NCBI RefSeq assembly: GCF_963921235.1
Contig: NC_086108.1
Span: 67,210,001-67,274,000, forward strand
Origin: Mobula hypostoma
Taxonomy: Eukaryota
DNA: 64,000 bases
Direction of reading: 5' to 3'
The translations under genes were made by a program, and so were the position numbers. The notes below the pieces were generated by a model that saw only the letters and a list, made by a program, of their open reading frames with translations, was not told the DNA's origin and did not search any database. Positions 20,621 through 58,895 of the stretch are shown one piece after another; the first letter of the stretch is position 1; each line of letters begins with the position of its first letter.

Positions 20621-20634
20621 TTTTTTAAAGTACA

Positions 20635-28597: not shown

Positions 28598-30420
28598 GGA
28601 ATTGGAATTGGTTTATTATTGTCACATACACCAAGATACAGTGAAAAGCTTGTCTTGCACGTTGTTCATGTAGATCGGATCTTTACACAGTGCATTGAGG
28701 TAGAACAAGGTAAAACAATAACGGAATGCAGAATAAAGTGCAACAGTTAAAGAGAAAGTGCATTGCAGGTAACCAATAAGGTGCAAGATAATAATGAGGT
28801 AGATTGTGAAGACAAGGATACATCTTATTATACTAGGGGATCCTTTAATAGATTTATAACAGTGGGGAACACGCTGTCTTTGATCCTGGTGGTACATGCT
28901 TTCTGATGTCCGTATCTTCCACCTGATGGGAGGGGGAGAAGATTTCTGGGTAGGGTCTTTGATTATGCTGTCTACTTTACTGAGACAGCAGGAAGTATAG
29001 ACAGAGTTCATGGAGGGGAGGCTGGTTCCTATACAAGAGAAAATCTGCAGATACTGGAAATCCGAACAACACGCACAAAATGCTAGAGGAGCTCAGCAGG
29101 CCAGGCAGCATCTATGGAAAAGAGAACAGTCAATGTTTCAGGCCGAAACCCTTCAGCAGGACTGGACTGGAGAAAAAAAAAGGCTGGTTCCCATGATGGG
29201 CTGAACTGTGCCCTTAGCTCTCTGTGGTTTCTTGTGGCCAAGTGCAGAGCAACTGCCATACCAAGACATTATCCATCCAGACAGAATGCTTTCTTAGATG
29301 CAGATATAAAAATTGGTAATAGTTGATAGATTATGCCAAATTCCTTAGCCTCCTGAGGAAGCAGAGGCATTGGTGAGCTTTCTTGGCCGTGGCATCAACC
29401 TGGTTGGACCAGGATAGGCTATTGGTGATGTTTATTCTGAGAAACTTGAAGCTCTCTGTCCTGTTAACCTCAACACGTTGATGAGGACAGGAGTATGTGT
29501 AACAGCCTTTTTCTGAAATCATTGACCAGCTCTTCCATTTTGCTGAGATTGATGGAAACATTGTTGATATGACACCATTACTAAGCTCTCCATCTCCTTT
29601 CTATATTCTGAGTCAGTAAGAGTAGAGATGGGGACTGAGGATGCAACCTTATAAAGCTTAGAATAATCATGGCAGAGGTGTTGTTGTCTATCCTTATTGA
29701 TTGTGGTTAGTTGGTCAAGAAGTCAAGGATACAGTTGTAGAAAGAGGTGTTGAGACCCAGGGTCTGGAGTTAGTGATGAGTTTGTTTGGAATAATGGTAT
29801 CAAAGGCCGAGTTGTAATCAATAAACAATAGGCTGATGTATTGTACACATCTTTGCAGTCCAGTACAGATGCTCAAGCCTGGGAAATGGCAGTAGCCAAA
29901 TTACAGTGGGTGAAGGTTGTCTGGAAGGATGGATTTGATGTGTGCCATGACCTGCCTCTCAAAGCACTTAAAGATGGCAGATGTCAGAGCCACTAGGCAG
30001 TAGTCATTAAGGCATGTTATTTTGTTTATCTTAGGTACCCAGATGATAGTGGTATTCTTAAAGCAGGTGGGAACCACAGATTGAAGCAGACAGAAGCTAA
30101 AAATCTCTACAAATACCCTGCCTAGTGATCTGCACAAAATCTAAGGGCATAGCCAGGGACAACATCTGGGCCTAATGCTTTCTGAGGGTCCACTCTCTGG
30201 AAATCTGGTCTTTTGTCTGCAGTGGTGATTGTGGGTTCAGGAGCACTGGAGGCTGTCAGTGTGGTATACCCATTCCCCTCTGCTCAAAACATGCACAGAA
30301 GATGTGATGCTCATCAAAAGGGGATTTTCTGTTGTCAGCAATGCTACCGCCTTCGTTTTGTTACTTATAGAATGTAAGCCCTGCCACAACTGATAACTGT
30401 ATTAGATTAGGATTCACTTT
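28598..30420 (-). mobile_element. Rex1/Babar LINE, degraded, containing a Penelope-like insert
   Basis: ORFs 29901..30137 (VPTCFKNTTI, LNDYCLVALTSAIFKCFER) and 29331..29561 (ESFKFLRINITNSLSW). Tail (GGAATT)n at 28598. Confidence 0.88.
29033..29180 (-). mobile_element. Penelope-like short insert with a minimal hammerhead motif
   Basis: Flanked by AGGCTGGTTCC(T/C)AT at 29019-29032 and 29181-29194. Minus strand 29164-29127 reads CAGTC CTGCTGA AGGGTTTCGGCCT GAAA CATT GACTG. Confidence 0.8.
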
Positions 30421-30549
30421 AACAGCAACTGTAATAAAATAACTTATACAATCAAAAACTTTCTGATCCCTGATGGATCAAGTCATATATCCTTCAGTCC
30501 ATTTGATAATTTTCTATATACATCTTATAATCCTTCTAACACTAATCAT

Positions 30550-30795
30550 CCTAGGTTGATTTAGAGAGGACCTGAGGAGGATATTATTTCACTCAGTGCT
30601 TGAAGTCAGGAGTGTACTGCCTCGGATGGTGGAAGCAGAGATTCTTACAACATTTAAGAATCATAAAGGCAGAGAAGGCTATGGAAAGGGTGCTACTAAG
30701 TAGAAGTTTTACGGAGGGTATTTGATCATCAGCGTAGAAACGATAGCCGAAGGACCTGTTTCCATATCACCTAACTCCATTATGATGACTATGAG
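30550..30795 (+). mobile_element. Old CR1 3' fragment
   Basis: TTTAGAGAGGACCTGAGG..TTTCACTCAG and GCCGAAGGACCTGTTTCC 3' UTR remnants. Confidence 0.65.
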
Positions 30796-31208
30796 TCTCC
30801 ACGTGATTTGCAATCAGCCATTCAGTGCTTTGACGAGGAATAGCCAACTGTTTAGAGCTCTCAGATGTTCAGGGTAAGGTTTGCAGATGCTGATGCTCCT
30901 GGCACTTTTCCCAGCATGTTCAGGGTTGAACGCTCCGCTGGTATGCTGGTATCTAGATGAGAGGTTGCCTCCAGCCCTTTTACCCATAAGCTGGAAGTGG
31001 CTATAGGGAATTCCCATTTGTGAATGTATTGGGAATCCTAGTGTATTTTTCCTCTGCTGACAGGAATTTTGCCTTTCTTGGTGTCAAGTCAGCTACTCTG
31101 GATTACTGAAAAGCTTGGCTCCTGCCCCATCATAATAATACTGTTCACAAATGCCAGAAGAAATTTCAGTCCAAATATCATAGGTGAAAGAAATATGTTA
31201 AATAAGTA

Positions 31209-31397
31209 AACAACAGGAATTCTGCAGATGCTGGAAATTCAAGCAACACACATAAAAGTTGCTGGTGAACGCAGCAGGCCAGGCAGCATCTCTAGGAAGA
31301 GGTGCAGTCGACGTTTCAGGCCGAGACCCTTCGTCGACACCTCTTCCTAGAGATGCTGCCTGGTCTGCTGCGTTCACCAGCAACTTTTATGTGTGTT
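31209..31397. mobile_element. Young Penelope-like fold-back insert with a hammerhead-like loop
   Basis: 60-bp inverted arms 31245-31304 / 31338-31397 with one mismatch. Exact 13-bp direct repeat TGTTAAATAAGTA at 31196-31208 and 31394-31406. Confidence 0.88.
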
Positions 31398-31712
31398 AAA
31401 TAAGTACATCAGTAGTTCAAAGCTAGCTGAGCTTTAACATTTTTCGCTGGTGGAGAATTAAACGGGCTTGGCTCCTCAAGGAGAATGTGAAAATGTCCCA
31501 CCACAGGTTTGCCCACTTAGCTCATGAAAATTGCTCTCAGTGGCTTCCTAAACGCAGAAAACGTTCATGCCCCTGTGGGTTCCTATTCAACACTGAATTA
31601 ATATGCAGAGTTTGCAGGCTCATATGCAGGAAGCGGGGAGAACTCTCCAGAGAGTCTGGTTTATTCAAGTGTTTATGCACACAACAAGCACATGATCAAA
31701 CAAAGATTTATG

Positions 31713-32254
31713 CACTCAGTGGCCACTTTATTAGGTACCTCTTATACCTAATAAAATAGCCACTAAGTGTACGTTCGTGGTCTTCTACTGCTGTAGCCCA
31801 CACACTTCAAGGTTCAACATATTGTCTATTCAGAGATGGCTTCTGCACATCACTGTTCTAACAAGTGGTTATTTAAATTACTGTTGCTTTCCTGTCAGCT
31901 TGAACTAGTCTGGCCGTTCTCCTCTGACCTCTCGCATAAGGCTTTTCCAACCATAGAACTCGTGCTCATTTTTTTTTACTTACTCTGTAAACTCTAGAGA
32001 CTGCTGTGTGTGAAAATCCGAGGAGATCTGCAGTTTCTGAGATACTCAATCCACCCTGTCAGGCACCAACTCGCATTCCACAGTCAAAGTCACTTCGGTC
32101 ACATATCTTCCCCATTCTGATGTTTGGTCTGAACAACAACGTGACTATATCTGCATGCTTTTATGCATTGAGTTGCTGCCACGTGATTGGCTGATTAGAT
32201 ACTTACATTAACAAGCAGGTGTACAGGTGTATTGAATAAAGTGACTCCTGAATG
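31713..32254 (-). mobile_element. Tc1-family internally deleted DNA transposon
   Basis: TIRs CACTCAGTGGCCACTTTATT ... AATAAAGTGACTCCTGAATG followed by TA. Internal sequence is homologous to 6287-6752 and 53966-54506. Confidence 0.88.
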
Positions 32255-33769
32255 TAGATGCCACAGATTGGCATCGACTCCCAGGAACTGCAATATCTAC
32301 CAGCATCCACCTGCAGTCAAGAAGCTAATTGGAGGGTCTGCACAGGAAACGTAAATGTTGTGGTCAGCCAGCACCAAGGTTAATGGCTAAAAACATCAGA
32401 CAGGAATGAGTTCAGAAAATGCCATCTTCTCTCCCTTATGAAAGTGTTGGTTAATTTACCTGTGATTCTCTTTAGAAGTCACATTACCTACATATAGTCT
32501 ACGCATTCACATATATGTATGTCTTTAACATGGCTATTGTTAAGTGAGGAACCTGTGCCCCTTCTGGCCACTGCTCATATTCTTTCACCGCTTTCCACCC
32601 ACCCGCACCCCTCCCCCACCACCCCCACCACTTAACATTTGTCAAAACTATTTCAACACTTATTGACTTAGTTTTGTTCATGAACTATCTGTAGAAGTTT
32701 TCCTGTGGGAGTAGGATGGAGCGGGAAGGAGATGAAAGGTTTATTAAAGCAAATAGTGAGTTGGGTCAATTGGAGGCCTTAGCTTAAATGGATCCAGTTA
32801 GCACTAAATCAAAGCAGCCTTTGCTGGCTATCACTTGTACAGCTTTGAAGTCTCCTCCTTGTGCAATCAAAATTGTTGCATGTGGTTAACATGCCGTGAT
32901 CACCACACTGCCAAAGATTGTAATGTCCTTTTGTTTCTTCTGAGAACGAGGCTGTAACGCCAGAATTATAAAATGAAAAAGGTTTATGGCTAGAGATTTT
33001 CTAGAAAAAAAATTGTTCCATACCCAGTTCCCAAATCTCATCTCAATATCATTAGTTTTCCAGTACAAATGAATGGAGGTATTTATCCTCATCCTTTTAA
33101 ATAAACTTCATCAAATTTTATATCTACAAGATTAGATAAGCAAATGGCTATCCATGAAACACTTTTTGTAAGCTGTCCTGATATATTAACGGTTGTGCTA
33201 TTGGTAAAAAAAACATTGCAAGTAGAAAAATATGATGGCGCTGAAAATGATAAATAGAAAACTCATAAAATTGCCATCTGGAACTGTATCACTTGTCTTT
33301 ATGATGTAGAAAAATCTGGCAGCCTTTCGATTTCATGTCTAGAACAAGAGTAATTCAGTGTGTGCAGGGGATGGAAAACATGATGCTAACAAGATGCAAA
33401 ACAATTGCAAATGGTAACTTTGTTCTTGTCTGAAGATACTGAGTGAGTTAGTTTGATGCACAGAGGGAAACCGGAATTGGTATGCACCATCAAGGAAAAA
33501 TATAGAGGGAAACAAATAGAAGAAATATTCGTCACTGCAAATATATTATCAGCAATTTAGTGAAAGTGATCTGTTACGACAGGTAGATTTTGTCCATAAA
33601 ATGGACAGTAGCTTATCCAGGTAAGAGGACAATTTTCTCACCTTGTCCTGAACCTTAATAGGAAAAACAGAGAAATGTCATGTTACAATCGAGATTACAT
33701 AATGATGCAATGTTATCAGCATTAATCAAATTACCATATAGTAGCCAGCAGGACCTTCAGTAATTAATT

Positions 33770-34051
33770 CCATGTACATTGAAGCATACAATGAAATGTT
33801 TCGTTTGTATCATGGTTAACAATATGCTGGGGTTAGCACTCAAGTGCTGCCACACTTGCAGTGCCAACATAGGATGCCCTCTAACGCTAACCATACATCT
33901 TTGGGATGTGGAAGGAAATGGGAGCTCCCGAAGGAAACCAGCACGATCATGAATATATCAGCTCCTTATAGACAGTGGCGGGAATTGAAAAATCAGCAAA
34001 AGCAAAGCAGGCGCTCTAAAGCAATTGTGTTAACCATGATGCTACCATGCC
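33770..34051 (-). mobile_element. tRNA-derived SINE (V-SINE/HE1-like central domain)
   Basis: Minus strand starts GGCATGGTAGCATCATGGTTAAC (A-box-like). The plus strand shows the central TTTGGGATGTGGAAGGAAA..GAGCTCCCGAAGGAAACC and GACAGTGGCGGGAATTGAA. It has a LINE-like 3' tail. Confidence 0.7.
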
Positions 34052-34869
34052 CAACAGCTCTACTGTTCATTGTGCATCACCTCCACTCACACTCAAGGTT
34101 ACTCCAACCTCAGTTATTAAGCTCAGACACCACATATACATGTGCTCAGTTAAGGAGGTTGAGCAGATGCCAAGAAGGTGCTTGACCTTTCCTAAATAAC
34201 ATTTGATTAGCGCAGACAAAGGCATCAGTCCTTCCATCTGGAAATAATGGAAGTACCGAAAAGGAGTAAGAAGTCAAGGTAATGTTGCCCCATTGATTCA
34301 CCAACTCCATCCACCTGCATTGTCACTCAACATTAAAAAATACATCAAAATAAGGACCAATACAATTTATCTGTCACACAAATTTGGTCAAAAGCAGTGG
34401 TACTAAACAGGCCAATAGCAAATCAGGCAACCATTTACATCATGTAAGTTTGTGGAACAACACCTTATCTTCCATCAGTTACAGTTTGCAGGACTCAGTA
34501 TCAATTTGGCAGCATTCTGTAGCTCCATTGTGCTATGGGTTCAAAAGTGCCATCTGATTCTACCTGGATAAGTGCAACTCACATTGTGTCTGAGTAATTC
34601 AGGGAACAAGATCAAGGCATAAACCTTACATCAACCAGAGAGACATGAATGGGCTTCCATTTCTCCTTCTCCCTCCATTATCATTCTTCTTTTTGTGATA
34701 TCCATCTGAAACCGTGGAAGGACATATTGATGATGATTCACTCAGTGGTAGCAGAATCATAGTCGGCCAGCTCCTGTTACCATGAGATGGATGAACCTGC
34801 TGCTCATTGTCAACACACACAGTAAGGGTGATGCCTCCAAAGGTCAAAAAAAGCTGTAAACACTAGACA

Positions 34870-35037
34870 TCAGAAATAAAAACACAAAATGCAAGAGACA
34901 TTCAGCAGGAGGTCAAGCAGCTTCTGCGGAAAGATAAACAGATTTAACATTCCAGGTTGGAGTCCTTTTGTTTGACTCTACTTTATTTCTACAGATACTA
35001 CCTGATCTGAGACTTGCCAGCATTTCCTGACTTTATT
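34870..35037. mobile_element. Old Penelope-like inverted repeat pair
   Basis: AATAAAAACACAAAATGC..CAGCAGG..TCAAGCAGCTTCTG is mirrored by CAGATACTACCTGATCTGAG..GCCAGCATTT..TTTATT. Confidence 0.55.
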
Positions 35038-35162
35038 CTATGAAACAGGATTACTTAAGTAATGAATCAGTCATTTAGCACAAACACACATGTCGATACT
35101 TATAATTCACATGAACCTCCTCTTCTTTCCCTAACCCAATTAACATGTCTCTCTCTTTAAAC

Positions 35163-38100
35163 CGCATGGATTGTTGCCTCCCGGGTGCCAGGGTCAGGGA
35201 TGTCTCTGACTGTGTGCATGACATCCTGGTATGAGAGGGAAAGCAACCAGAAGACGTGATACATGTTGGGACCAACAACATAGGCAGGAAGAGGGATGAG
35301 GTCCTGAAGTGTGAGTTTCGGGAACTAGGCAGAAGGTTGAAGAACAGGACCTCAAGGGTGGCGTTCTCAGGATTGCTGCCAGTGCTATGTGATAGTGATG
35401 GTAGAATTGGAGGAGATGGCAGTTGAATGCGTGGCTGAGGAGTTGGTGCAGGGAGCAAGGTTTTAGATTTTTGGATCATTGGGATCTCTTCTGGGGAAGG
35501 TGGGACCTGTACAGATTGGATGGGCTGCACCTGAACTCGAGGGGGAGCAATATCCTTGCAGGTAGGTTTGCTAGCATGGTTCGGGAGGGTTTAAACTATT
35601 TTGCAAGGGGGATGGGACCCAGAGCGATAGAGCAGTGAAAGAAGTGCATGGAGTAAAGCCAGATCTAACATATAGAGAGGCTTTGAGGAAAGAGAAGCAG
35701 AATAAACGGTGTAAAGACAGTAAGGTAGAAGGGCTGAAATGTGTGTACCTCAATGCAAGAAGCATCAAGAACAAAGGTGATGAACTGAGAGCTTGGATAC
35801 ATACATGGAATTATGATGTAGTGGCCATTACAGAGACTTGGCTGGCACCAGGGCAGGAATGGATTCTCAATTTTCCTGGATTTCAGTGCTTTAAAAAGGA
35901 TAGAGAGGGCGGAAAAAAGGGAGGAGGGGTGGCATTACTGGTTAGGGATACTATTACAGCTACACAAACGGTGGGTAATGTAGCAGGATCCTCTTCTGAG
36001 TCAGTATGGGTGGAAGTCAGGAACAGGAAGGGAGCAGTTACTCTATTGGGGGTATTCTATAGGCCCCCTGGTAGCAGCAGAGATACAGAGCAGCAGATTG
36101 GGAGGCAGATTTTGGAAAGGTGCAAAAATAACAGGGTTGTTATCATGGGTGACTTTAACGTCCTAATATTGATTGGCACCTGATTAGTTTCAAGGGTTTA
36201 GATGGGGCAGAGTTTGTTAAGTGTGTCCAGGATGGATTCTTGTCACAGTATGTGGACAGGCCAACTAGGGGGAATGCCAGACTAGATCTAGTACAGTACT
36301 AGGTAATGAACCGGGTCAGGTCACAGATCTCTCAGTGGGTGAGCATCTGGGGGACAGTGACCACCACTCCCTGGACTTTAGCATTATCATGGAAAAGGAT
36401 AGAATCAGAGAGGACAGGAAAATTTCCAATTGGGGAAGGGCAAATTATGAGGCTATAAGGCTAGAACTTGCAGGTGTGAATTGAGATGATGTTTCTGCAG
36501 GGAAATGTACTATGGACATGTGGTTGATGTTTAGAGATGTCTTGCAGGATGTTAGGGATAAATTTGTCCCAGTGAGGAAGATAAAGAATGGTAGGGTGAA
36601 AGAACCATGGGTGACAAGTGAGGTGGAAAATCTAGTCAGGTGGAAGAAGGCAGCATACACGAGGTTTAGGAAGCAAGGATCAAATGGATCTATTGAGGAA
36701 TATAGGGAAGCAAGAAAGGAGTTTAAGAAGGAGCTGAGAAGAGCAAGAAGGGGGCATGAGAAGGCCTTGGCGAGTAGGGTAAAGGAAAACCCCAAGGCAT
36801 TCTTCAATTATGTGAAGAAAAAAGGGATGACAGGAGTGAAGGTAGGACAAATTAGAGATAAATGTGGGAAGATGTGCCTGGAGGCTGTGGAAGTGAGCGA
36901 GGTCCTCAATGAATACTTCTCTTCAGTATTCACCAATGAGAGGGAACTTGATGATGATGAGGACAATATGAGTAAGGTTGATGATCTGGAGCATGTTGAT
37001 ATTAAGGGAGAGGAGGTGTTGGAGTGGCTAGGATCTTTATGTCCTCATTGTCCATGGGAATGGTACCGGAGGATTGGAGGGAGGTGAATGTTGTCCCCTT
37101 GTTCAAAAAAGGTAGTAGGGATAGTTCGGGTAATTATAGACCAGTGAGCTTTATGTCTGTGGTGGGAAAGCTGTTGGAAAAGATTCTTAGAGATAGGATC
37201 TCTGGGCATTTAGAGAATTATCGTCTGCTCAGGGACTGTCAGCATGGCTTTGTGAAGGGAAGATCGTGTCTAACAAGCCTGATAGAGTTCTTTGAGGAGG
37301 TGACCAGGCACATAGATGAGGGTAGTGCAGTGGATGTGATCTATATGGATTTTAGTAAGGCATTTGACAAGATTCCACACGGTAGGCTTATTCAGAAAGT
37401 CAGAAGGCATGGGATCCAGGGAAGTTTGGCCAGGAGGATTCAGGATTGGCTTGCCTGCAGAAGGCAAAGGGTCGTGGTGGAGGGAGTACATTCAGATTGG
37501 AGGATTGTGACTAGTGGTGTCCCACAAGGATCTGTTCTGGGACCTCTACTTCTCATGATTTTTATTAACGACCTGGATGTGGGGGTAGAAGGGTGGGTTG
37601 GCAAGTTTGCAGACAACATAAAGGTTGGTAGTGTTGTAGATAGTGTAGAGGATTGTCAAAGATTGCAGAGAGCCATTGATAGGATGCAGAAGTGGGCTGA
37701 GAAGTGGCAGATGGAGTTCAACCTGGAGAAGTGTGAGGGGGTACACTTTGGAAGGACAAACTCCAAGGCAGAGTACAAAGTAAATGGCAGGATACTTGGT
37801 AGTGTGGAGGAGCAGAGGGATCTGGCGGTACATGTCCACAGATCCCTGAAAGTTGCCTCACAGGTGGATAGGGTAGTTAAGAAAGCTTATGGGGCGTTAG
37901 CTTTCATAGGTCAAGGGATAGTGTTTAAGAGTCGCGATGTAATGATGCAGCTCTATAAAACTCTGGTTAGGCCACACTTGGAGTACTGTGTCCAGTTCTG
38001 GTCACCTCACTATAGGAAGGATGTGGAAGCATTGGAAAGGGTACAGAGGAGATTTACCAGGATGCTGCCTGGTTTAGAGAGTATGCATTATGATCAGAGA

Positions 38101-38499
38101 TTAAGGGAGCTAGGGCTTTACTCTTTGGAGAGAAGGAGGATGAGAGGAGACATGATAGAGATGTACAAGATAATAAGAGGAATAGATAGAGTGGATAGCC
38201 AGCACCTCTTCCCCAGGGCACCACTGCTCAATACAAAAGGACATGGCTTTAAGGTACGGGGTGGGAAGTTCAAGGCGGATATTAGAGGAAGGTTTTTTAC
38301 TCAGAGAGTGGTTGGTGCGTGGAATGCACTGCCTGAGTCAGTGGTGGAGGCAGATACACTCGTGAAGTTTAAGAGACTACTAGGCAGGTATATGGAGGAA
38401 TTTAAGGTGCCGGGTTATATGGGAGGCAGGGTTTGAGGGTCAGCACAACATTATGGGCCAAAGGGCCTGTACTGTGCTGTACTATTCTATGTTCTATGT
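35163..38499 (+). mobile_element. CR1 LINE, about 3.3 kb: ORF1 SGNH-esterase remnant plus ORF2 endonuclease and RT, inactive
   Basis: CCLPGARVRDVS, HVGTNNI and LYRLDGLHLN (esterase). YLNARSIKNK, AITETWL, GGGVALLV and MGDFN (APE endonuclease). 470-aa RT ORF 37024..38436 has FADN in place of FADD. Tail (TTCTATG)n. Confidence 0.96.
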
Positions 38500-39384: not shown

Positions 39385-39717
39385 GGGGGGTAGTGGACTA
39401 AGCTCCCACTAGCTATTAAATGCTTCCAAATGCTTCCAATGATGTAGCCTCTAACAACCAATTCCAGCTTCTGGACTTTACGTGTGGCTTGAGGAAAATC
39501 TGGAGCTGAAGTCCCTAAGGCAGTCCTATGTTGAGTTCAACGCTGATTGACAACCCCTGCCGAACTCTATTATCAGTCTCTGCCATTCCTTTGGATTCAT
39601 CATGGAGAGAGGGAGTCTGCTGCATGGGCAACAGCTCACTCTCCACCTCGTACTGCCCTGGCTTGCATATCAAACAGCTAGAACGCGACATCTATGGTTG
39701 ACCCTGACCAGAGGCCT
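39385..39717 (+). mobile_element. Unclassified dispersed repeat (possibly RTE-associated non-autonomous element)
   Basis: 3' end CTGCCCTGGCTTG..CATCTATGGTTGACCCTGACCA..GAGGCC recurs at 6751-6816. Confidence 0.4.
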
Positions 39718-42339: not shown

Positions 42340-42870
42340 AGTAAAGATTGGATAAGTTGGGGGTCACAGTCTAGGGGAGTCTAAAACTAGAGGGCATAGG
42401 TTTAACATGAGAGAAGAAAGATTTGAAGGGGACCTGAGAGGCAGGTTTTTCCACACAGAGAGTGGTGGGTATACAGAACTAGTTGCCAGAGGAGGTCATA
42501 AACACAAGGGATCCTGCAGATGCTGGAAATCTTGAACAACACACACAAAATGCTGGAGAAACTAAGTAAGTCAGGCAGCATCTACAGAGAAGAATAAACA
42601 GCCAACATTTCAGATAAAACATTAACTGCTTATTCCCCTCCATAGATGCTGCCTGAATTGTTGAGTTCCTCCAGCATTTTGTATGTGTTGCCAGAGGCAG
42701 TGGTAGAGTAAGGCACAATTGCAATATTTAAAAGATATTTGGGCAGGTGCACGTTTAGAGGGATCTGAGCCAAATGTAGGCAAAGGGGACTAGTTTAGAT
42801 AAGCATCTTGATTAAGTTGGGCCAAAGTGCCTGTTTCTGTGTTTTACAGCTCTAAAATTCTATGACTCAA
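42340..42870 (+). mobile_element. CR1 3' fragment interrupted by a Penelope-like fold-back insert
   Basis: GGGGAGTCTAAAACTAGAGGGCATAGGTTTAA and TTTTTCCACACAGAGAGTGGTG. Tail TTCTATGACTC. Confidence 0.8.
42501..42690. mobile_element. Penelope-like fold-back insert
   Basis: Inverted arms CAACACACACAAAATGCTGGAG.. / ..CTCCAGCATTTTGTATGTGTTG. Direct repeat GTTGCCAGAGG at 42482-42492 and 42687-42697. Confidence 0.78.
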
Positions 42871-44220: not shown

Positions 44221-44439
44221 CACTGGTCTCTACAATTTACCTCGTAATGACCCTTGCACCTTAATATCTGCCCGAAATGCATGTTCTCTGTAGCTGCAAG
44301 TGTAAAGCTATATTCCATTTTCTGTTATAGTTTTTCCCTCATACTCCTTCAAAATACTTATGATTTGAAATAATCTGCGAAGATAGCATGCAAAACTAAG
44401 TCTTCTGGACTATGGTGCACCTACAACACACATATCACA

Positions 44440-47138: not shown

Positions 47139-48876
47139 ATAGAGCGCTTAGAGCGCTTTGGGAGATGTTTCAGCAGTTTTCAGTGAAACCTGTAACTGAT
47201 CTGTGAAGTAAATAACATCTAAGTGAAGACACAAGAGATTCTAGTGACTGGGCCTAGGGCAGAGTTTCAATCCAAAAGATTGTCAATTCCTTTCCTCCCA
47301 CAGATGCTGCTCAACCCACTGAGGCCTAGGCAGTTGAAGGAATTCTTGTCACGGGTGGAATTATTAAACTTGGGAATGACAAAAATGTCGGAGTTGAAAA
47401 ATTGTAGATACCTCACGGGATTATGCGGCTGAAAGATACGGAAGGAGTTGGGAAAGAAAAGCAACAGATTGTTTATTGCATCATCCACATGAAAATTGTG
47501 GTGAAAGTGAAATGGAGCACCTGTACCCTTTGCTTTCCTCTGACTGTTCAACGATGGCTTTTTGCTAGAGCTTGTACAAAAGCTCCAGTTTAGGTCCAAT
47601 GAATCAAAGCAGGTGATGCACGGTGATCGACATCATTAGATACGTGTCTGATGCTGAGAAAATGTCAAACACATGAATGTATCTTATGGCTGGAAATGTC
47701 TATTCCAATTTCACAAGAGTTCATCAGAAATGGTTGCTCTTGTTTGCTACAATTAAACTGATATTAAATTGAACTGCACCGAAAATGGCATCTCCTAAAC
47801 ATTCTACTGTGTTAGCAAATATCTTAAAGCTCTGAGAGACAACAAAATCATTTCAACACAAACACAAGCATAATATCAGAATGTGTGCCCATGCAGTAAT
47901 CCCTTGATACAAGTCAACATGTAAAGTTCCCTTTTAAGACTTGAATATTAACATATTTTTTAAAAGTTCTTTTTGAATTTCACTGTGCTGGAAATGGTGG
48001 AAATTATCTCCCAAATGGCTCAAAATTAAGTTAAGCAAGTTCAAAATATTTGATTTAGGTTGTTTGTATTTCATCGATCTCGGGTCAGTTTTGCCTGTGG
48101 TATTTATGATTTATGGGGTTAGTGTCACTTAGGGCTCTTTTTCTGCCAAACACTGATCTCCATTGCTGATTTACTGCAGGGGAAGTTCTGTGAAACCCCT
48201 CAACACCACTTTTCAATGGAAAGTGAAAACTCGCAGTCAGTAAGCTCACAGTTTTCTGATGTATTTTAGCTGTGTGTGGCTCCACTAACAGCATGGGGGA
48301 CTCACAAACGCTAGTCTTCCTACTGTGCAACTGTTGATCATTATTCATTAATTCCTGACCAAAGACATATTTATGCATCCGTGCTGTATGCGGTCATTGA
48401 TATCCAAGGTGCGTCTAATATCTATAATAAGTAAAATACAACTACAAATCCTTTTGACTGCAGCAAATATTACAGAAATGAATTGATACCTTTGAAGTTC
48501 TACAGTAAGTTACCTCCAATCAAATGTTCAAGCCATTCCAGAGCTGTTCACAAGTTTTCAATTATTCTGAACTATAATGCAATTATTCCCTGTAAATGTT
48601 CCATGATGCCTTGTATATCCAACCATTTCACAAACAGTTTCTGGTATGTGAACTGATACTACATGCCCAAAATTATTTTCAGAGAAAATGAAATGAAAAA
48701 AAATCACCAATAGGATGAGCAGAGAGACAGCCTTCGTGTATCTTCAGTTGTTTTGGTGATGGTTGGTAATAGATGAGAAAAAGCAGAACATACAGTAATT
48801 CTTTGAATTATTTATAGTAGAGTTGGTTATTTCTGTGACTGTATTAAAATGTTAAAAAGAATATGTCTGGACAGTA

Positions 48877-49080
48877 AACACAAAATACTCTGCAGATGCT
48901 GGGGTCAAAGCAACACTTACAATACGCTGGAGGAACTCAGCAACTCGGGCAGCATCTGTGGAAATGATCAGTCAGTGTTTCGGGCCGGAACCCTACGTCA
49001 GGACTGGCGAAGGGTTCTGGCCCGTAACGTTGACTGATCGTTTCCACGGATGCTGCCCGGCCTGCTGAGTTCCTCCAGCG
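48877..49080. mobile_element. Penelope-like fold-back insert with two opposed hammerhead motifs
   Basis: Exact 15-bp direct repeat TATGTCTGGACAGTA at 48862-48876 and 49081-49095. Minus-strand motif at 49006-48969 and plus-strand motif at 49004-49036. Confidence 0.88.
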
Positions 49081-49504
49081 TATGTCTGGACAGTAGTTTG
49101 TTCAAGATCTGCTGATTGTGCTTTCTTTGTGTGTAAGTAGGCATTTGCAGTATGCCAGTATGGAATACTCTGTCGTTCGATGGTGGCATATCTTACCTAT
49201 TGCTCTGCCCCTGAGTTCATAGCTGGGTCCAAGTGTGCTTCCTGTTCAAAAAGGCTTTATATACATTGTATTTGGACCTTCAGATCCATATTCATTTCTA
49301 TTTAGCCACCAACTTTCATTTAAAAGGTAAACAAAATCCTACGTTTTTGCTTATTTTCCTTTATTTTGATTCATATTACTGTGTTTCAGTAATTTAAAGA
49401 CCACTAAAGCAAAGAGCCATTGAGATAATATAGAGATATGGCCTTAGAATCTTCTGCCTGATGTCAAGTTGTGGCAGGACAGCTAGGTTCTTATTTAGTA
49501 AGGA

Positions 49505-49618
49505 TGTTAAAGGTTAAGGGCAGATGGCAGGAGAATGAGGTTGAAAGGGCAAATTAATCAGCCATGAACTTGATGGGCTGAATGGCCTAATTCTGCTCCT
49601 ATGTCTTATGGTCCTATG
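49505..49618 (+). mobile_element. CR1 3' tail
   Basis: GGCAGGAGAATGAGGTTGA..ATCAGCCATGA..GGGCTGAATGGCCTAATTCTGCTCCTATGTCTTATGG. Confidence 0.8.
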
Positions 49619-51114
49619 GACAGCTTGGTGACAGGACTCTGAGATCACAGGAGCTGCTTGGCCACAATAGTTAAGTGTGGTGTGGGAAGAGTGTGGGAAG
49701 CACACTTGAAGCATCAGCCATTTCAAATATGATTCAGCCCATTGGCTGAAAGTCAGAGGGCCTCTTTCCCTACCTTGCAATGTTGTAAATCTTTAGGGTA
49801 AAATTACTTTCACAAGTGTAATCAACTGTTTTCAAATGCGTCAAACCGAATCACTTTATAATGTGAAGGGAAATGTTCGCTCTTGAATCATGTGATATCA
49901 TGGATCCCAATGGAATCTATGAAGCTGCCAAGCAATCACAAATAAAATGATCACAGTCAATAAATAATACACTTGGTAGATAGCCTAAACTCAACTTCCT
50001 GCTTCAGACCCGTAGTTTTGTGCAAAACAGGAAATTCTGCTCCCCAATTTGTTATTTTTAATACAAATTTTTTGATGGACATTCCTGGCACCAAAAGCAT
50101 AAAGTGGAAAACCCCAGCCCAATGTTTCTTACTGTATGTGTATTCACCTGTTAAAGTATTTCCCAAGAGTTTCCCCTATGACTTAGTAAATGAGTGTGCT
50201 GTACGGGACAGAATTAATGTGTTGTGATCAGAAAGGTTACATACTGAATCTCTGGTGTATGCTGATCCACATGAAGGTAACTGACCTGAACCAGGCTGTT
50301 GGTTGGAAGGTCTATAAAGCTTTCAGCAGAGGAAAATGGCATAAAATGATTCTTGTTTTCTGCTTGCTATCCAGTTACCCATAATGAATATTGAAAAAGT
50401 GCAGTCTTGATAATCACCAAGTTTAAATTGTCAGACATTTATTATCATAAATATTTCAAATAAAAAAAGGGGCTAATTTTAAAGCAAGCATTTAACGCCT
50501 TAAAAAGTGGAGAGAGGAAACATTTCTGGGAAGAAATGTTTAACCAGAGTTCGGATAGACACATTAGCACTGATGTCTGTTTTCTCTAGGACTTTGATAC
50601 AAAAATAAATAAATCTTTTGCTGCAACAGTCACGGAGGGTTCGATGCACTACATGAGTCTATGGAATTTCCAGCATAAACACGCACTGTGTCATGGGAAA
50701 ATATGTAATTACTTTGAAAGAATTCACAGCCTGTACATTCACAAAAATGCAATGGGTACTGTGAACACAGATGAAAAATATTTCAGATTTTACCACTAAA
50801 AGCATTGATTGATCAGGTATTAATGTTATTTTAGAGTAAATAATATGGCACTAGATGTAGAAAAAAAAATCCCAAATTCCTAATATATGACTATTCATTT
50901 GTATTTCTATAAAAGTAGCCTGACCCTGGCGTTGCTAAAATAAAAAGATCCTGGAAGCACTCAGCAGATCAAGCAGTATCTATGGTTAGGGAAGCAGATT
51001 TAACAATTCAGCTTGAAGATCCTTCCTCAAAACTGGGAAAGATAGAAAACTGAATAGTTGTAGAAAGGATGGGGGTAGGATGGTTCCAACAATGAGAATA
51101 TCGCTGATAGAGTA

Positions 51115-51462
51115 AGGAGCGTTAGGTCCTACACCACTGGGCTCAGGAATAGTTATCCTTCAACCGTCAGGCATCTGAACCAGCATGGGTAACTTCAGTC
51201 AATGCAACACTGACATGATTCTACAATTTATTACAATTTCAAGAACTCTACAACTCATACTTTCAGCATTATTTATTTATCGCATTTGTAGTTTGTCTTT
51301 TTTTGTGCGTTGATTGATTGTCAGTCTTTGTGTGTAGTTTTTTGTTGATTCTGTTGTATGTGTAATTTTTTTCTGTTCTACTATGAATGCCTGCAAGAAA
51401 ATTAGTTTCAGGGTGTAGGTGACTCACACATACTTTGATAATAAATCTACTTTGAACTTTGA
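51115..51462 (+). mobile_element. Rex1/Babar 3' tail
   Basis: CACCACTGGGCTCAGGAATAGTTATCCTTCAACCGTCAGG ... ACTTTGATAATAAATCTACTTTGAACTTTGA. Confidence 0.8.
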
Positions 51463-51656
51463 AGATCACTATTAGTATAAACTGTTGTGTTAATCTGGTT
51501 GACAGGTTTACGAGAACAATTATAGAGAAGAAAGATGAAATGAAAAAGTTGCACGTGGAACCAAGGGTTGTAAAAGATGAGAAATGCAGAGCTGTGTTAA
51601 ATGCTATGGATGTCAGATCATGATAATGGAGATAGGCAAAGCTGGGGGTGGCGGGG

Positions 51657-51678
51657 GAAGAGAAAAGAGAGAGAGAAA

Positions 51679-51743
<65 letters not shown>
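51657..51743. repeat. (GA)n microsatellite / polypurine tract
   Basis: Directly visible. Confidence 0.97.
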
Positions 51744-51746
<3 letters not shown>

Positions 51747-52755
51747 AAAATAATTGTAATTAAATCATCCTGTTGAAGGTTTCAATAAATATGCTAATAC
51801 ACATAAGATCTGAACTATTCACATCACTAGAAAGGCCTAGTTAAGCAACAGGTTTGAGCTTTTTATACAATATCCTATGGACCAAGACCCACTAAACACT
51901 ACGGATACACTACGGATACACTGTTGATACATTTCAAACCTACCTCTCTCTGCTATGTGAAAGGCTTAATGATGTTGTCAATGGTGTCCTTTCCTCAAAG
52001 TCCATTACCAATTATCCTTACAAATTGCTATATGACATCCATCTCAATAATTTCAACCATGGGAATTCTTTCTCTAGATTTTGCCCCACAAAACACCATC
52101 TATATGATCAGCTTTACACCTCTCCATACAATGCTTCACCAACTTTGAGAACATAACATCTCCTCTGATACACTAGTGATTATTTAATGCCTATACCTAA
52201 TGAAGAAGTGTCTTCCAGCGAAACAGTTAAAAGATAAAATTGATCCTCTCCACCTCCAGCCTAACATTAGTATTTGATTCAGTTTACCTCTCCCCCATTT
52301 CTCATTTGGATCAAATTCTATATTATACAGTTTCTGTATCCTGATTGACCCCGAACAGAGCTTCAAACCCCATATGATTTCCATCACCAAGATCATTTAT
52401 TTTAACTTCTTTGCTATTGTATACTTTGGCATACCTCAGTAATACTCTGAGCTGCATGTTTTGCCCTTTGACTTCTTTTGCTGAATCAAATATCTGGAGA
52501 TATATAAATTCATAAGGCCTTGAACAATATAGTCAGCTCCAAATAAAATCAATGTAAAATGCTAAATGAAATTTACAGACACTTGCAAAGAACAGAAAAT
52601 CTGCAGCAACTTGAAGTCAAAATGATATTATTACCTCAGTTTTAAGTCAAATATCATGAAACACAGAATGGCAACTTTTTTTTAAAGTTCTTTAATTATA
52701 AAAATAATTGCATGTGTGTTATCTGTTTCATTGCACTAAAAAGGGGACAAAAGTT

Positions 52756-52851
52756 TTGCTGAAGGGTATTGGCCTGAAATGTTGACTATTCTCTTTTCCA
52801 TAGCTGCCGCCTGGCCTGCTGAGTTCCTCCAGCATTTTGTGTGAGTTGCTA
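52756..52851 (+). mobile_element. Penelope-like monomeric insert with a degenerate hammerhead motif
   Basis: TTGCTGA AGGGTATTGGCCT GAAA TGTT GACT. Exact direct repeat GGACAAAAGTT at 52745-52755 and 52852-52862. Confidence 0.8.
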
Positions 52852-53559
52852 GGACAAAAGTTGGTTTCTGTTTTCAGGTGAGCATACAACAGTGGAGAAA
52901 AGTATAATATCAAATTTATAGTCCTGCAAGCTGTAAGCAATCTGTTAATATGATGAAGCTGTTGAAATAGCCAAATGCCCCATTAACCTGTACAAATAGA
53001 GTCCTTCGAGGTTAAAGACACCTTGAAGCAATTTTTAAAAACCAATGGACAGAAATAGCAACTATAAATATTATAGAAAAATGAAACTCATCTATGAAAT
53101 ATTGGTAATGCCTTTGCTGCATTCCATAGGGCAGGTAATAATAGAGATATTGAGTTATACAGCAATTGGTCTGCTAAGGAGAGACCTGTAAAGGACCTAC
53201 ATTTTTACTTGAAAGCAGGTTCTGGCAAATTGCTGCTCACCAGTCTAAGATGAGGGGCAGCTTGAAAGGCACATTTGCTATGGTTGGTAGACAACAGCAG
53301 CCACCTTCCCTTCATCAGCAATCACCTGCTTTCTGATCTTATGATAGAATGAAGATCATTACTGAAGCAGATAAAGATGGTTGTGTCTGGAACACTGACC
53401 CAAAGAACTCCTGAGGTATAGCAGATGATTGATCTGAAATGCCATGGAGTCATGGGAGAGATACAGAATGAAAATAGCTGACTCCATGCTAGTCATCAAA
53501 CACCCATCTCCAACAATCGCATCATATTCTCCCCACAATGTGATCAACTTCCCTCCCAC

Positions 53560-53745
53560 CCCAAATCAATGTATCATCCTGCATATTTTTGGAATATGGA
53601 TGGAAATAGGAGCAGCAATGGAGAAGATCCACATGGTCACAAGAAAAAACATGCAAATCCACACAGATAACAACAATGGTCAGGATTGAACTTGGGCTGC
53701 TGGAGACGTAAGGCAGCAGCCCAGCAAGCTGTACCACTGTACCAC
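53560..53745 (-). mobile_element. tRNA-derived SINE 5' part
   Basis: Minus strand GGTACAGTGGTACAGCTTG (A-box-like) and AAGTTCAATCCTGACC (B-box-like), followed by the V-SINE-like core. Confidence 0.7.
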
Positions 53746-53965
53746 ATTTTCTCTTTCAGTGAAATACAGTATGGCTCCAAATGGTGGAGAAATTTCCCTA
53801 TGGTTCCACTTATTTTTAGCTTTACCATAGAGTTATTTTGCTCAATCACCAAGTTACCCCTGCTGGTGAGATATTATGGCAGCTCTAAAGAGACATGGAG
53901 AACTGTGCATGTAATCTGAAATAACACAGAGTTTACAACAAGAATAAATATTAACAGAGATAATG

Positions 53966-54506
53966 CACTCAGTGGCCGCTTTATTAGGTGCGCTTGTATA
54001 CCTACTCGTTAATGCAAATATCTAATCAGCCAATCATGCAGCAGCAATTCAATGCATAAAAACACACAGACATGGTCAAGAGGTTCAGTTGTTGTTCCGA
54101 CCATACATCAGAATGGGAAAAAAATGTGATCTAAGTGACTTTGACCTTGGGATGATTTTTGGTGCTAGATGGGGTGATTTGAGTATATCAGAAACTGCTG
54201 ATTTTCACAGACAATGGTCTCTAGAGCTTATGGAGAATGGTGTGATAAACAACAAAAAAATCTAGAGAGCATGCAGTTCTGTGGATGAAAATGCCTTGTT
54301 AATGAGAGAGGTCAGAGGCAAATGACCAGACTTGTTTAAAGCGGCAGGAAGGCGACAGTAACTCAAATAACCATGTGTTTCAACAGTGACATGCATAAGA
54401 GCATCTGTGAAAGTACAACACATTGAACCTTGAAATGGGACGGGCTACATTAGTTAAAGAGCACACCAGATTCCACTCCTATAACAAACAAGGTAGCCGC
54501 TGAGTA
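53966..54506 (+). mobile_element. Tc1-family internally deleted DNA transposon
   Basis: TIR CACTCAGTGGCCGCTTTATTAGG ... GTAGCCGCTGAGTA. Encodes decayed MGKKCDLSDFDLGMIFGARWGDLSISETAD and LVNERGQRQMTRLV. Confidence 0.88.
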
Positions 54507-57500
54507 TATTTGACACAGAAAGTGTGTGCCTTCAATAGTATTCATTGTGCTGGGAAATTAAAATATATGTTCCTCTTTGTCAATTGTTTGAGGCCACTGT
54601 CAATTGTCATACTTTGTATTGTCATTTTAATGATGGCAATGGTAAAAACATGCCTTATGCAGGAATATTTAGTGAACTGGCTGTTAATATGTTCAGTACC
54701 TTGCTGTTTAGTTTAAATGGTGCATCATGGAATGTTGGGAATGTGACCATTTCTCTGCAGTTAGTGATACATCCTCCTGTTGCCACAGATATGCTCCAGG
54801 TTTGCATGAACTATTTCCTCCTGAAGCAGAATTTCTGAATAGAAGCCTGGATTGATATATTCTTGGGAATGGATATTGCTGGGACGATTCTCTGATGCTG
54901 CCTGACTAATTTGCCTTTCTTTCCAGCAATCTCACTGTGAAATCCATTTTGCTACTTTTGAATCTCTCATTTTGCGAGTCTCTAATTCTCTTTCAATTTG
55001 ATTAATTGCACATTTCCAGAGTTCATACAACAGGACTAATCTCTTTCAGATATTTGCAGTCAAATGCAAGGCACAGGCAGAAGTGTCCAGTTTGTTTTCT
55101 TCAACTGTTTCCATTTAAGCAGGGCCTTCAGCTTTGCTGAAGCATTCCCAGCATACTGTTATTTCTAACTGCGGCACATGTCCCAAGGACACGTGGAACT
55201 GTAACTTAGATCAGGCAATATCATTCTAAATAACATTCTTCCTTACTTATAGCTGACAGCAAAGGAAGATGCTTCTTGAGAAAAGTCTGGCTCAGGATGA
55301 AATTAACCATAGGAAATTTGTAGGGAGCATCTCAGTTAAATTGTCCCTCCAGAGAGATGCAAATGTGCCCTCACTTCATTTCTTACTCTAGGTATCATTA
55401 TTTTTGAAAGACATTTGCAAAGAGAAAACTCTCAGATTAGGTAAATAGAACACCATCTGAGTACTTTCTCAGGTCAAACATTTATGAACAACAGGGACCA
55501 CATTGTCAGTGTCAGTGAGAAGTAGCAAACTGTGAGTTTAAGATTAAAATGTCATGAGGTCGTAACTCTGCCCTTAGTATGTGTGTATAAAGAAAGCAGA
55601 CGGTTAGCATACAAATTACAAGGAAACGTGAGAAGAGGTTATTAGCGTTTTTCAGTAGAAGTGAGAGTTCACCTCTGACCCTCCATTTAGATATAATGGA
55701 AAACATTTATATTTATATGTGGTAAAATAAATGTGTCAACTCCTGACTTTTCACAGTTTCTTTACTGTCTGCCAAGAACAAAATGCTCAAACTGTTTTTG
55801 TGTCCTTCCCCAATTTCATATCCATCAAGAGTGATCTAAAGGGATTGGTGACAACTGAAAGTTATGTGAGATTGCTATTACAAATACCAACAATGAAATA
55901 AATTACATATTATATATTTAATTCTTCAGAGAAACCTAATCAATAATGTTTGATAGAAACAATTCATTTCTCTCCAACTGGATATTTAGCATTACAGTCT
56001 AGTCAGGATTTCCAGAGGTCAAACAATGTGAATCATTAGTCAGTACTAGTGTGCTCTAAATTGAAATTACGCACACTGTACCCAAGTAGAGTAATGAATC
56101 CTAACCAGAGGCCCAGGAAGCTATTCAGCAGGAAACAATTTAACTTCAAACAACGAGAAGGTTTGCGTCAATTTCAAGCCCAGTGGGATTTCTCCCAGCA
56201 TGCCACTGGCTCACTATGCCCCAGGGCTACCTACAATCCACGTTGTGCATTCTTAGTGCTTGAAAATATAAATTGCCATAAATCTGAGTAAAAAGAATGA
56301 AGAAAAGGGCAAGATTTTCCATAAGATATGTCTGTCACCTCTGTGTAAAGGTATATTTTACTGTAATAACAGTCTGTGGAATCCACCTTTAAGATGAAAT
56401 ATAGGACTTGAAACTAGACATTAATGTTCAAGATTAACTGAAAAATGGGGGTAAGACTTTACTTGTAAATGTGAAACTTACAGATCCTTTTTAAATGAAT
56501 ATGTGTAACAAATATTTTAAAGCTTTTCTAAATATTTTTCTAATGTATTTTGGCACAGTTCCAGGCAGTGTCTCCTGGCAGCTTGTAAGGTTTTTCTTCT
56601 TACCGTTTAAGTAAATCCAGTATCTTGTTTGTACTTTTCAAAAGTTTACAGCTCTGAAATGGACCAAGAATGAAGAGTTTCTCCACTTCTATGATTAGAA
56701 GCACTTGTAGTAGGTCATTCATTTGTCTGTATTTTAATTCCCCTGGCAACAGTTAGAGTTAATTCAGCGACATAAAATAACAGTCGATAAAAGGAGAGCA
56801 GCCACTGGTGATTAATAGCTGAGGATGTAATGCTTGACTGCACATCAAAAATTTAAACAGATTAAGAAATAATTACCATTATGCTTCTGGTGAACCAAAC
56901 CTTTTCAAATAAATAATTTGATGATGTCCTTCTTATTTAGCAGAGCACAAATTCTACAAAAGGAGCTTTATATAGTTGTGAACCTCTCACCTAATACTAA
57001 AGACAAAGTAACCACTTTAACTTTAGAGTTATCAGTTAGATCATGCTTATCATTTCAGTCACTTTCTCTTTTTTCTCACTTCATTATGTTATCTCAACTG
57101 TTTTTCTTCCTGTAACTGAGATTTCCCAATCTCAGTTCAACATTCTTACCATTGTTACCAATGTTTCAGCCATTTAGTTTTCCTGGTTAAAGGTACATAC
57201 TGTTTGACTCACTGATCACAAACACTGCAGAAGACCTGTTACACTCATTGCTCCATTATCAACTTGTGCTTCTAGAAAATTTACAAGCATAGGAGGCTAA
57301 AATCTTACAAAAGTGACTGCGAGTCTAATAGGAGGATGCTGTGAGATGAACCTCTCCTTAAAATCTGGCTCAGCAGCTTTATAATACTGCAGTCCATCAG
57401 TGCTGGACAAAATTGTTAGCTTGGATAATGTGCTGGAATATGGCTTAAAGCCAAAAAATCAATCTATGTTTTTAAAACTGTGTGGAGAGATCATAGGTTC

Positions 57501-57948
57501 ACTGTAGCAGAACCCGAAAGCTCAAGGTGGTGGATGACACTGTTTGCCCTTTGCACACTTTTCTTTTGTAATTTTTTTTATTGAAGTTCATCATCAAACA
57601 AAACTTTACATAAGATGTACTTCAGATACTCTACATATATATCATATAGTCATATTTGTCACAAATCTCCACATAATATTTATCCACTTCATATCTTAGG
57701 AAGGAAAATTCAGCAAGTCAGAGTCTTGGGCTGAGTGCATGTGGTGGAATCTGTGGGGTGGGAGGGAGTGATGGAGGGGTGGAGCTGGTGGCCAGTGGAT
57801 TGATCAGGAATGACAGGTCAGCATGGACTAGATAGGCTGAAGTACCTGCTTCTGTGCTGTAGTGCTCTGCAACTCTATCACTCTATGATCTCCTTGTTGG
57901 GGAATAGTGTTGACTCAATAGTGAGATCTTGGTAGAATATGGAGTTTG

Positions 57949-58460
57949 TGGAATTGGAATTGGTTTATTCTTGTCACGTACTGAGACTGAGTGAAAAGCT
58001 TATTTTACATACGTTTCATACAGATCAGATGCATTGAGGTGGTACAAGGTAAAACAATAACAATACAGAATAAAGTGCAATAGCTACAGAGAAAGTGCAG
58101 TGCAGAATAACATGCAAGATCATAATGAGGTGATTGTGAGGTCAAGAGTCCATCTTATCGTACGAGGGAACCATTTAATAATCTTTTTACAGTGGGGTAG
58201 AATCTGTCCTTGAGTTTCATGCTTTCTGGATTTTGCATCTTCTGCCTGATGTGAGAAGGGAGAAGAAAGAATGCCCCAGATGGGTGTGGTCTTTGATTAT
58301 GCAGGCTGTTTTACTGAGGCAGCGATAAGTAGACAGAGTCCATGGAGAGGGTGGGCTGGTTTCTGTGATGTGCTGAGCTGTGTCCACAACTCTCTGCAGT
58401 TTCTTGCAGCCACATGCAGAGCTCTTGCCATAAAAAAGCATCCAGACAGGATGCTTTTGA
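57949..58460 (-). mobile_element. Rex1/Babar 3' fragment
   Basis: ORF 58217..58441 KKLQRVVDTAQHITET..IIKDHTHLGHSFFSLLTSGRR. Same (GGAATT)n tail as 28598. Confidence 0.88.
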
Positions 58461-58537
58461 GATCAGAGCCCCCGTCCAATGAACAGTATTCACACACATG
58501 ATCCAAAGGTTTGTGAATCAGTTAGCACAGCTGGGGA

Positions 58538-58684
58538 CACAAGAGATTCTGCAGATGCTGGAAATCTGGATCACCACATGAAAAATGCAGGAGTAACCCA
58601 AGGGTCTTGACCCAAAACATCAACTGTTCTTTCTCTCCTAGGTGCTGCCTGATTTGCTGCGTTCCTCCAGTATGTTTTGTATGT
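58538..58684. mobile_element. Penelope-like insert, partially inverted
   Basis: ACAAGAGATTCTGCAGATGCTGGAAATC followed by AAGGGTCTTGACCCAAAACATCAACTG. Imperfect direct repeat GT(T/C)AGCACAGC..GGGA at 58521-58537 and 58685-58701. Confidence 0.7.
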
Positions 58685-58895
58685 GTCAGCACAGCCAGGG
58701 AGCAGCACTGCCAAGGGATGCAAAGTAATTACGAAAAAAATATTAAATGAAACAACTGGGTCAGGTCGCTGAAACCGAGCTGAAAGTGGACAATATGGTG
58801 CCTGTTAAGTTCTCTCGTTGCAGTTCATTCTGCGCTGTGAAAGTATGATTGCTCCAAGAGTGACCACTTACGGGCTCCTATGAATATCATGAACT

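Follow-up and report, generated by a model that had tools for sequence, protein, structure and literature searches.

Short hammerhead-bearing inserts in the ray Mobula hypostoma are very probably truncated copies of a Penelope-like element

What are the short, non-coding repeats with a hammerhead-like motif that are scattered through one stretch of the ray Mobula hypostoma genome, and how did they get there? The stretch, called the window here, is 64,000 nucleotides long (NCBI RefSeq assembly GCF_963921235.1, contig NC_086108.1, positions 67,210,001 to 67,274,000), has a GC content of about 41%, and is crowded with broken pieces of long interspersed nuclear elements (LINEs). A first-pass annotation described six main inserts, named here by their positions in the window (29033, 31209, 42501, 48877, 52756 and 58538), and five older relics (7389, 20635, 34870, 47228 and 50940). 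We conclude that the inserts are very probably dead-on-arrival, extremely 5'-truncated copies of an endonuclease-bearing Penelope-like element (PLE). They likely hold just the last 90-150 bases of the PLE terminal repeat, including a minimal hammerhead motif, and they are likely a known kind of insert in a known layout, not a separate ribozyme-only element.

We built a family profile from nine window arms (an insert holds one or two arms) and ran it on the window, with the reversed window as a control. The profile found 15 arms at 10 loci with E <= 2.3e-4, nine of them the training arms, and a 16th arm at E 0.06; the top match in the reversed window reached only E 0.86. All six main inserts and the relics 20635, 34870, 47228 and 50940 were recovered, as expected of the dispersed family sharing one sequence that had been described, with a density of about one locus per 6 kb. 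Relic 7389 could not be confirmed: it has no profile match at E <= 10, and its alignment score of 34 equals the 95th percentile of 400 random pieces. Beyond the window, we used contig tables from four sequencing runs (X1, X5, X9 and X17), which cover copies at least 80% alike. Summed contig depth is about 1e7 on the repeat and about 10 on the flanks, which can be read as "very high copy" only and not as a copy number; this bears out the high copy number claimed earlier. Run X17 (presumed RNA) contains the family sequence without the flanks of the 31209 locus.

Target-site duplications (TSDs) were sought in intervals set by hand at the element ends, with 150 random position pairs as a null. They are perfect in five of the six main inserts, at 11 (29033), 13 (31209), 11 (42501), 15 (48877) and 11 bp (52756), and the sixth (58538) has an 11 bp TSD with one mismatch. 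The direct repeats of 11-17 bp reported earlier around all six are hence confirmed, as 11-15 bp perfect repeats in five and an imperfect one in the last. None of the random pairs scored as high as the five perfect TSDs (best score 8), while 1/150 equalled the sixth. By eye, the TSDs of 42501 and 58538 stretch to ~19 and ~17 bp with mismatches. No TSD was found at any of the five relics (scores 2-4).

Two of the inserts also have an empty site. Run X9 comes from another, related species (9 differences in 313 flank letters), and its contig 25 joins 31195 directly to 31394, with record positions 177-343 and 344-489 contiguous in the table of contig pieces from which the joint was read. This site lacks the element and one copy of the 13-mer TSD; contigs of runs X1 and X5 have both junctions. 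The related species thus keeps an unfilled site with a single TSD copy, which proves that the 31209 element is a genuine insertion. Insert 29033 sits inside an older LINE piece, and a paralogous LINE piece at 58207-58467 matches both of its flanks with an 11 nt overlap. Arm-to-arm identity ranges from 59/60 (31209) through 69/80 (48877) and 59/74 (42501) to 54/74 (20635), and insertion therefore continued over a long period. The TSDs, the empty sites and this spread of identities together support the earlier view of retro-insertion with TSDs and long activity.

A feature of the inserts that was under-described in the first-pass annotation is their layout. Two arms are joined head to head in four of the six main inserts and in three of the four confirmed relics. 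Read in the ribozyme sense, one arm reaches ~+127 past the first core base and its partner ~+82 to +93, leaving a one-sided tail, whose length is 36, 36 and 45 nt in three inserts of the window. The two single-arm inserts each use one of these two 3' ends. Among the contig matches listed, loose ends fall before 31208 in 691 contigs of X1, 625 of X5, 168 of X9 and 77 of X17, and before 31241-31243 in 190 and 175 contigs of X1, 206 of X5 and 20 of X17; loose-end and joint counts, here and below, are lower bounds. With genome-wide end clusters 33-35 nt apart, the family is shown to have two preferred 3' ends about 35 nt apart.

At the other end, the arms are far less uniform, with 5' ends scattered between about -50 and +60 relative to the core. 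The window copy flips at 31335; beyond that point, common sequence carries on in contigs of each of the four runs (212, 157, 37 and 35 contigs), and this continuation brings back CUGA together with stem I's 5' strand. Four window arms also keep 13-50 nt of upstream pyrimidine-rich sequence. Because genomic copies and these four arms continue upstream, the inserts are best seen as truncations of a longer unit. By reading, the tail-less ends of four inserts have 3-4 nt in common with the TSD, and the arms of 48877 overlap by 3 nt at their junction.

A few smaller observations concern the same ends and joints. Joints from 31335 to 31303/31304 recur in other genomic copies with 5-7 letters between them; they could represent foldbacks or else short hammerhead units in tandem. 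Opposite-strand joints that link the tail end 31208 to 31241 occur in 3 contigs of X1 and 7 of X5 among the matches listed. The ~75 nt between the arms of the 20635 relic (20735-20810) may be more upstream terminal-repeat sequence. A candidate poly(A) tail at 29172-29181 was rejected, as the A-run is the element's own pyrimidine tract and is present also at 20810. We did not accept a target preference from the A-rich consensus at loose ends, because A is the commonest base anyway.

Published PLE work accounts for every feature of the inserts. PLE insertions are heavily truncated on their 5' side; an inverted truncated copy often lies at the 5' end, together with a tail of 30-40 bp at one end (Craig et al., PMC8557442). 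Arkhipova et al. (PMC3846280) described inverted pseudo-long terminal repeats (pLTRs), a 31 bp tail, TSDs of 8-10 bp and palindromic junctions. The ray inserts share with the insertion units of canonical endonuclease-bearing (EN+) PLEs, namely Penelope/Poseidon, Neptune and Nematis, head-to-head arms, a one-sided tail, 5' truncation, a TSD and palindromic or microhomology junctions (PMC3846280, PMC8557442, PMC8969392). Unlike those units, the window inserts are just 100-210 bp long without an open reading frame (ORF), and have TSDs of 11-19 rather than the 8-10 bp of rotifers. In vitro, PLE protein cuts and extends both target strands, reverse transcription begins inside the RNA at two sites whose spacing equals the tail, and ribozyme cleavage is dispensable for insertion (Frangieh et al. 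2024, PMC11167929). The element in that study, PAc (Poseidon of Anolis carolinensis), resembles the ray family in having two 3' ends one tail apart, ~90-130 nt downstream of the hammerhead, and its dispensable cleavage fits the amplified core-defective ray copies. However, the PAc ORF starts in stem II, whereas no long reading frame opens in the ray arm. The Penelope-like origin proposed in the first-pass annotation is hence supported by the inverted arms, one-sided tail, variable 5' truncation and TSDs.

This literature suggests how the inserts may have formed. Judging from the Anolis work (PMC11167929), the PLE GIY-YIG domain would make a staggered cut of ~9-19 bp, giving the TSD. The PLE reverse transcriptase (RT) would then begin copying within the RNA, at either of two sites (tail end or tail-less end), and proceed towards the RNA 5' end (PMC11167929), usually stopping after 60-150 bases. 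Where both cut strands prime, one per site, two short cDNAs would result, and a microhomology of a few bases would join these head to head, leaving a tail on one side of the inverted pair. Any role of the ribozyme would be confined to the parent RNA, where it would act as a dimer or be helped by protein; in the inserts it would decay. We infer the cut, priming and joining steps for these inserts, and consider priming from both strands to be moderately probable.

The motif itself is best judged from the genome-wide copies. In the contigs, the family majority reads as stem I (5 bp), CUGANGA, a single additional base, stem II (4 bp), GAAA, C, GUC and the partner strand of stem I, consistent with the predicted minimal type I hammerhead with CUGANGA, GAAA and an NUH site in order. 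The contigs covering it number 77,270, 49,095, 12,821 and 4,366 in the four runs. Among the variants listed, those of at least 5% occur at only 4 of 31 hammerhead positions (31305-31335): G16.2 (9% in X1), two loop positions at a CpG, and 11.1 (10% in X1 and 67% in X9), where the variant turns the G-U pair 10.1-11.1 into G-C. As the variant tables omit differences near contig ends, copies less than 80% alike and some X1 differences, these figures overstate conservation. The contig majority shows that genome-wide copies mostly carry an intact minimal hammerhead core. Independently of the contigs, the peptide VSPDEGSRPET in ray gene models is the frame that an intact motif would encode.

Inside the window, an intact hammerhead descriptor has no match, nor does it have any in 300 shuffles (19.2 Mb). 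The earlier statement that every window copy has a core mutation stands in so far as no copy is intact; the 31209 copy, however, is cut inside CUGA rather than mutated. The arms of 48877, the only insert carrying a ribozyme on each arm, differ at 6/33 hammerhead positions versus 5/47 body positions, a similar divergence, and there is therefore no sign of post-insertion selection on the ribozyme. Transcripts of two-armed inserts would fold into one long hairpin (z -17 for 48877, z -20 for a second fold), and the inversion of the arms places the two ribozymes on opposite strands. A C at core position A6 is found in both 29153-29159 (-) and 52756-52762 (+), and a ribozyme-defective A6C subfamily, so far of two copies only, may have spread.

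Cervera and de la Pena 2014 (PMC4209133) described minimal hammerheads of this kind as mostly single motifs, probably truncated PLEs, in which a palindromic stretch at 15.2-16.2 makes a dimer possible. The ray motif resembles these metazoan PLE hammerheads in its type I form, stem I of 5 bp, additional base lying between 9 and 10.1, G10.1 pair, and palindromic 15.2-16.2 stretch without a loop III, and in occurring mostly as single dispersed motifs. It differs in its stem II, which is 4 bp as against 7-8 bp in Schistosoma (PMC4209133) and which the main subfamily closes with G-U. Two supplement files of the same paper contain no shark, skate or Callorhinchus entry.

Several results weigh against a PLE origin or against reading the motif as a ribozyme. 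The autonomous partner with RT and GIY-YIG was not found in window ORFs, public DNA collections or protein searches with arm peptides. The first-pass annotation had seen no Penelope RT or GIY-YIG ORF in the window, and we likewise found no GIY-YIG among its 282 ORFs of at least 60 aa. Pfam was run on these 282 out of 757 ORFs of at least 40 aa, a set from which shorter or decayed PLE fragments would escape, and gave eight RVT_1, four ALKBH8_N, one AP endonuclease, one GDSL and one weak PHD match, LINE-type by reading. ORF-less window copies are, however, expected for truncated inserts. Pattern scans of viral contigs, metagenome contigs and prokaryote genomes, and a blastn search of plasmids, gave no family match. 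The arm-peptide searches yielded 2 hits of 59 candidates, and 7 hits; among them, three distinct proteins are Mobula gene models containing the repeat and five look like composition noise, and none links the repeat to an RT or endonuclease. Among gene models, the translated arm has matches in Mobula hypostoma (97% over ~32 aa) and in M. birostris. The upstream continuation is visible for 30 letters only, with an agreement of 0.49-0.62, and TSDs of 11-19 bp exceed those of rotifer PLEs (8-10 bp; PMC3846280). The stem covariation that the first-pass annotation proposed to test for did not appear: stem II is 87.5% paired in 10 window arms, 0/4 of its pairs changed on both sides, with no excess over shuffles, and the stem changes seen are one-sided only (G-U/G-C, U-G/U-A). 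The two complete window motifs, at 29127-29164 (-) and 48969-49006 (-), form stems I and II and lack a stem III, and their folds are not more stable than those of shuffles (z -0.7 and -0.8). Rfam gave six matches up to E 1, none a hammerhead and none at the gathering score.

The first-pass annotation preferred a separate non-autonomous family, in which a short ribozyme-bearing RNA made by its own source copies is mobilised in trans by PLE protein. Such derivatives of PLEs exist (PMC8557442; bioRxiv 2026.07.22.740005), and in rotifers pLTR sequences suffice for mobilisation in trans (PMC3846280). All copies in the window are short, and 8/18 arms start within -6..+7 of the core. However, the other 10/18 start anywhere from about -50 to +60, and the fixed short unit that this explanation predicts is at odds with genomic copies that continue upstream. 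The window copies belong to several diverged sequence types that lack any fixed internal structure, and no source copy was seen. With variable 5' ends, genomic copies that continue upstream, a broken or truncated core in every window copy and ribozymes on opposite strands in the inverted inserts, a separate family is neither needed nor supported, and we consider it unlikely.

The family could alternatively be a non-LTR (long terminal repeat) retrozyme, spreading from tandem ribozyme units through circular RNA, reverse transcription and insertion. Like animal non-LTR retrozymes (bioRxiv 10.64898/2026.07.22.740005), it is non-coding, has a type I minimal hammerhead and is related to pLTRs, and retrozymes have been reported in the one chondrichthyan sampled (bioRxiv 2026.07.22.740005). 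The joints from 31335 back to ~31303 could also be short tandem units. Retrozymes, however, have tandem units with at least two intact ribozymes, while in the window each unit is either single or part of an inverted pair, and no intact one occurs. This alternative, raised in the first-pass annotation, fails on its defining feature: 0/13 tandem-repeat rows in the window cover the family. The pairs are inverted, so a single transcript holds one sense ribozyme and folds into a long hairpin, and the copy ends do not fit a cut-to-cut unit, with only 2/18 arms starting near the cut site. We regard a retrozyme as very improbable.

Least credible of all is a miniature inverted-repeat transposable element (MITE) or ordinary short interspersed nuclear element with a chance likeness to a hammerhead: two-armed inserts do resemble foldback elements, and neither an Rfam hammerhead match up to E 1 nor covariation was found, but the repeats are asymmetric with a different centre in each copy, single arms occur, TSD length varies (11-19 bp) where a MITE would have symmetric terminal inverted repeats, a fixed short TSD and a uniform size, there is no tRNA-like head or poly(A) tail, and the full descriptor, absent from 19.2 Mb of shuffles, fits the family majority.

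If the inserts are truncated PLE copies, their 5' ends may say something about the template RNA. Of 18 arm starts, eight lie within -6..+7 of the first core base (one of them the doubtful 7389), two near the cut site (+27 to +34), two in stem II, four upstream and two far downstream, in a tally that is small, hand-called and without a proper null. Arm starts at the ribozyme's upstream edge, rather than at the cut site, may mark a discrete RNA 5' end. Tentatively, the inserts might then be run-off ("strong-stop"-like) cDNAs, with reverse transcription starting at an internal tail site near the RNA 5' end and dropping off a discrete 5' end at the first bases of stem I. That end could be a transcription start at the initiator-like pyrimidine-AGTCC, or a 3' splice site, and not the ribozyme cut site. 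The spot where arms start fits an initiator-like motif, and a 3' splice site as well. The intron of Drosophila virilis Penelope has its end at helix I, 46 + 75 nt past the start site (PMC2377424). Three Mobula gene models include the repeat as coding sequence: P0001, P0002 and P0003 (a STARD3NL isoform, CoA synthase and an uncharacterised protein). In P0003, the change from host sequence to repeat lies at the codon expected for a splice acceptor immediately before stem I; P0001 is ambiguous. If the 5' end is indeed discrete, the inserts would be run-off products of uncleaved RNA, and the genome would hold a fossil map of the uncleaved template in tens of thousands of copies, whose foldback arms record two-strand priming.

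This is a very abundant ray PLE family, if the reading above is right, and its copies are numerous enough to address PLE questions by counting, such as the points at which cDNAs begin and end, whether cleaved RNA ever serves as template, and whether dead-ribozyme subfamilies still spread. Its polymorphic insertions are usable as lineage markers, and the repeat is occasionally used as an exon in ray gene models. We found no description of this ray family in the literature, although it may already be named in Repbase, Dfam or paper supplements; on Penelope in sharks and rays, whale shark listings mention it in passing, and the ray papers among the matches listed do not mention it. The short foldback copies are easily mistaken for MITEs or for hairpins of microRNAs. 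At 42571-42656, the foldback within insert 42501 has a weak mir-2131 score (39.6 bits versus a gathering score of 92), and such inserts can mimic microRNA hairpins. Coordinates of all copies are given in Table 1.

Table 1. Copies of the family in the window, with strand and the basis for each assignment ("." for two-armed or unoriented entries).
Copy	Position	Strand	Basis
Single arm with tail, 29033-29180; hammerhead region 29127-29164 (A6, G16.2, C17 changed); upstream T-tract; 11 bp TSD 29019-29029 / 29181-29191	29019..29191	-	profile, TSD search, fold
Two-armed insert, youngest: tailed arm 31209-31335 (-), tail-less arm 31336-31397 (+); 36 nt tail; 13 bp TSD 31196-31208 / 31394-31406	31196..31406	.	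arms 59/60 identical; empty site
Two-armed insert within CR1-type LINE piece: arm with tail 42501-42615 (-), arm without tail 42616-42690 (+), stem II interrupted by the cut in both; tail 36 nt	42482..42697	.	arms 59/74 identical; profile; TSD
Two-armed insert, hammerhead on either arm (48969-49006 -, ~49004-49036 +); head-to-head via 3 nt overlap; 45 nt tail; 15 bp TSD	48862..49095	.	arms 69/80 identical; hairpin z -17
Single tail-less arm 52756-52854, first base = first core base; 11 bp TSD	52745..52862	+	profile, TSD search, alignment
Two-armed insert: short tailed arm 58538-58599 (-), tail-less arm 58600-58686 (+) starting ~A9	58521..58701	.	profile, TSD search, alignment
Old two-armed relic: 20632-20734 (-), ~20810-20885 (+); pyrimidine tract upstream of stem I kept in both arms	20632..20885	.	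profile, alignment
Old two-armed relic: 34847-34967 (-), 34972-35038 (+)	34847..35038	.	profile, alignment
Old relic: 14 nt tail end, then + arm 47259-47323	47227..47335	.	profile E 2.3e-4
Old single-arm relic, continuing upstream of hammerhead	50912..51049	-	profile, alignment
Doubtful relic: 12 nt like core start, then tail-like stretch (internal deletion if real)	7389..7446	+	by eye; marginal alignment score

Three neighbouring features of the window lie outside the family. A 67 nt palindrome at 31708-31774 scores 44.7 bits to mir-9256 (gathering score 80) and is probably a small DNA-transposon relic. A near full-length, frameshifted CR1-type LINE occupies 35405-38436 (+), with a GDSL esterase piece, AP endonuclease and RT. 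Two young inverted LINE 3' parts, at 11533-11971 and 59411-59850, are 92-95% alike, and their frame matches Pfam ALKBH8_N.

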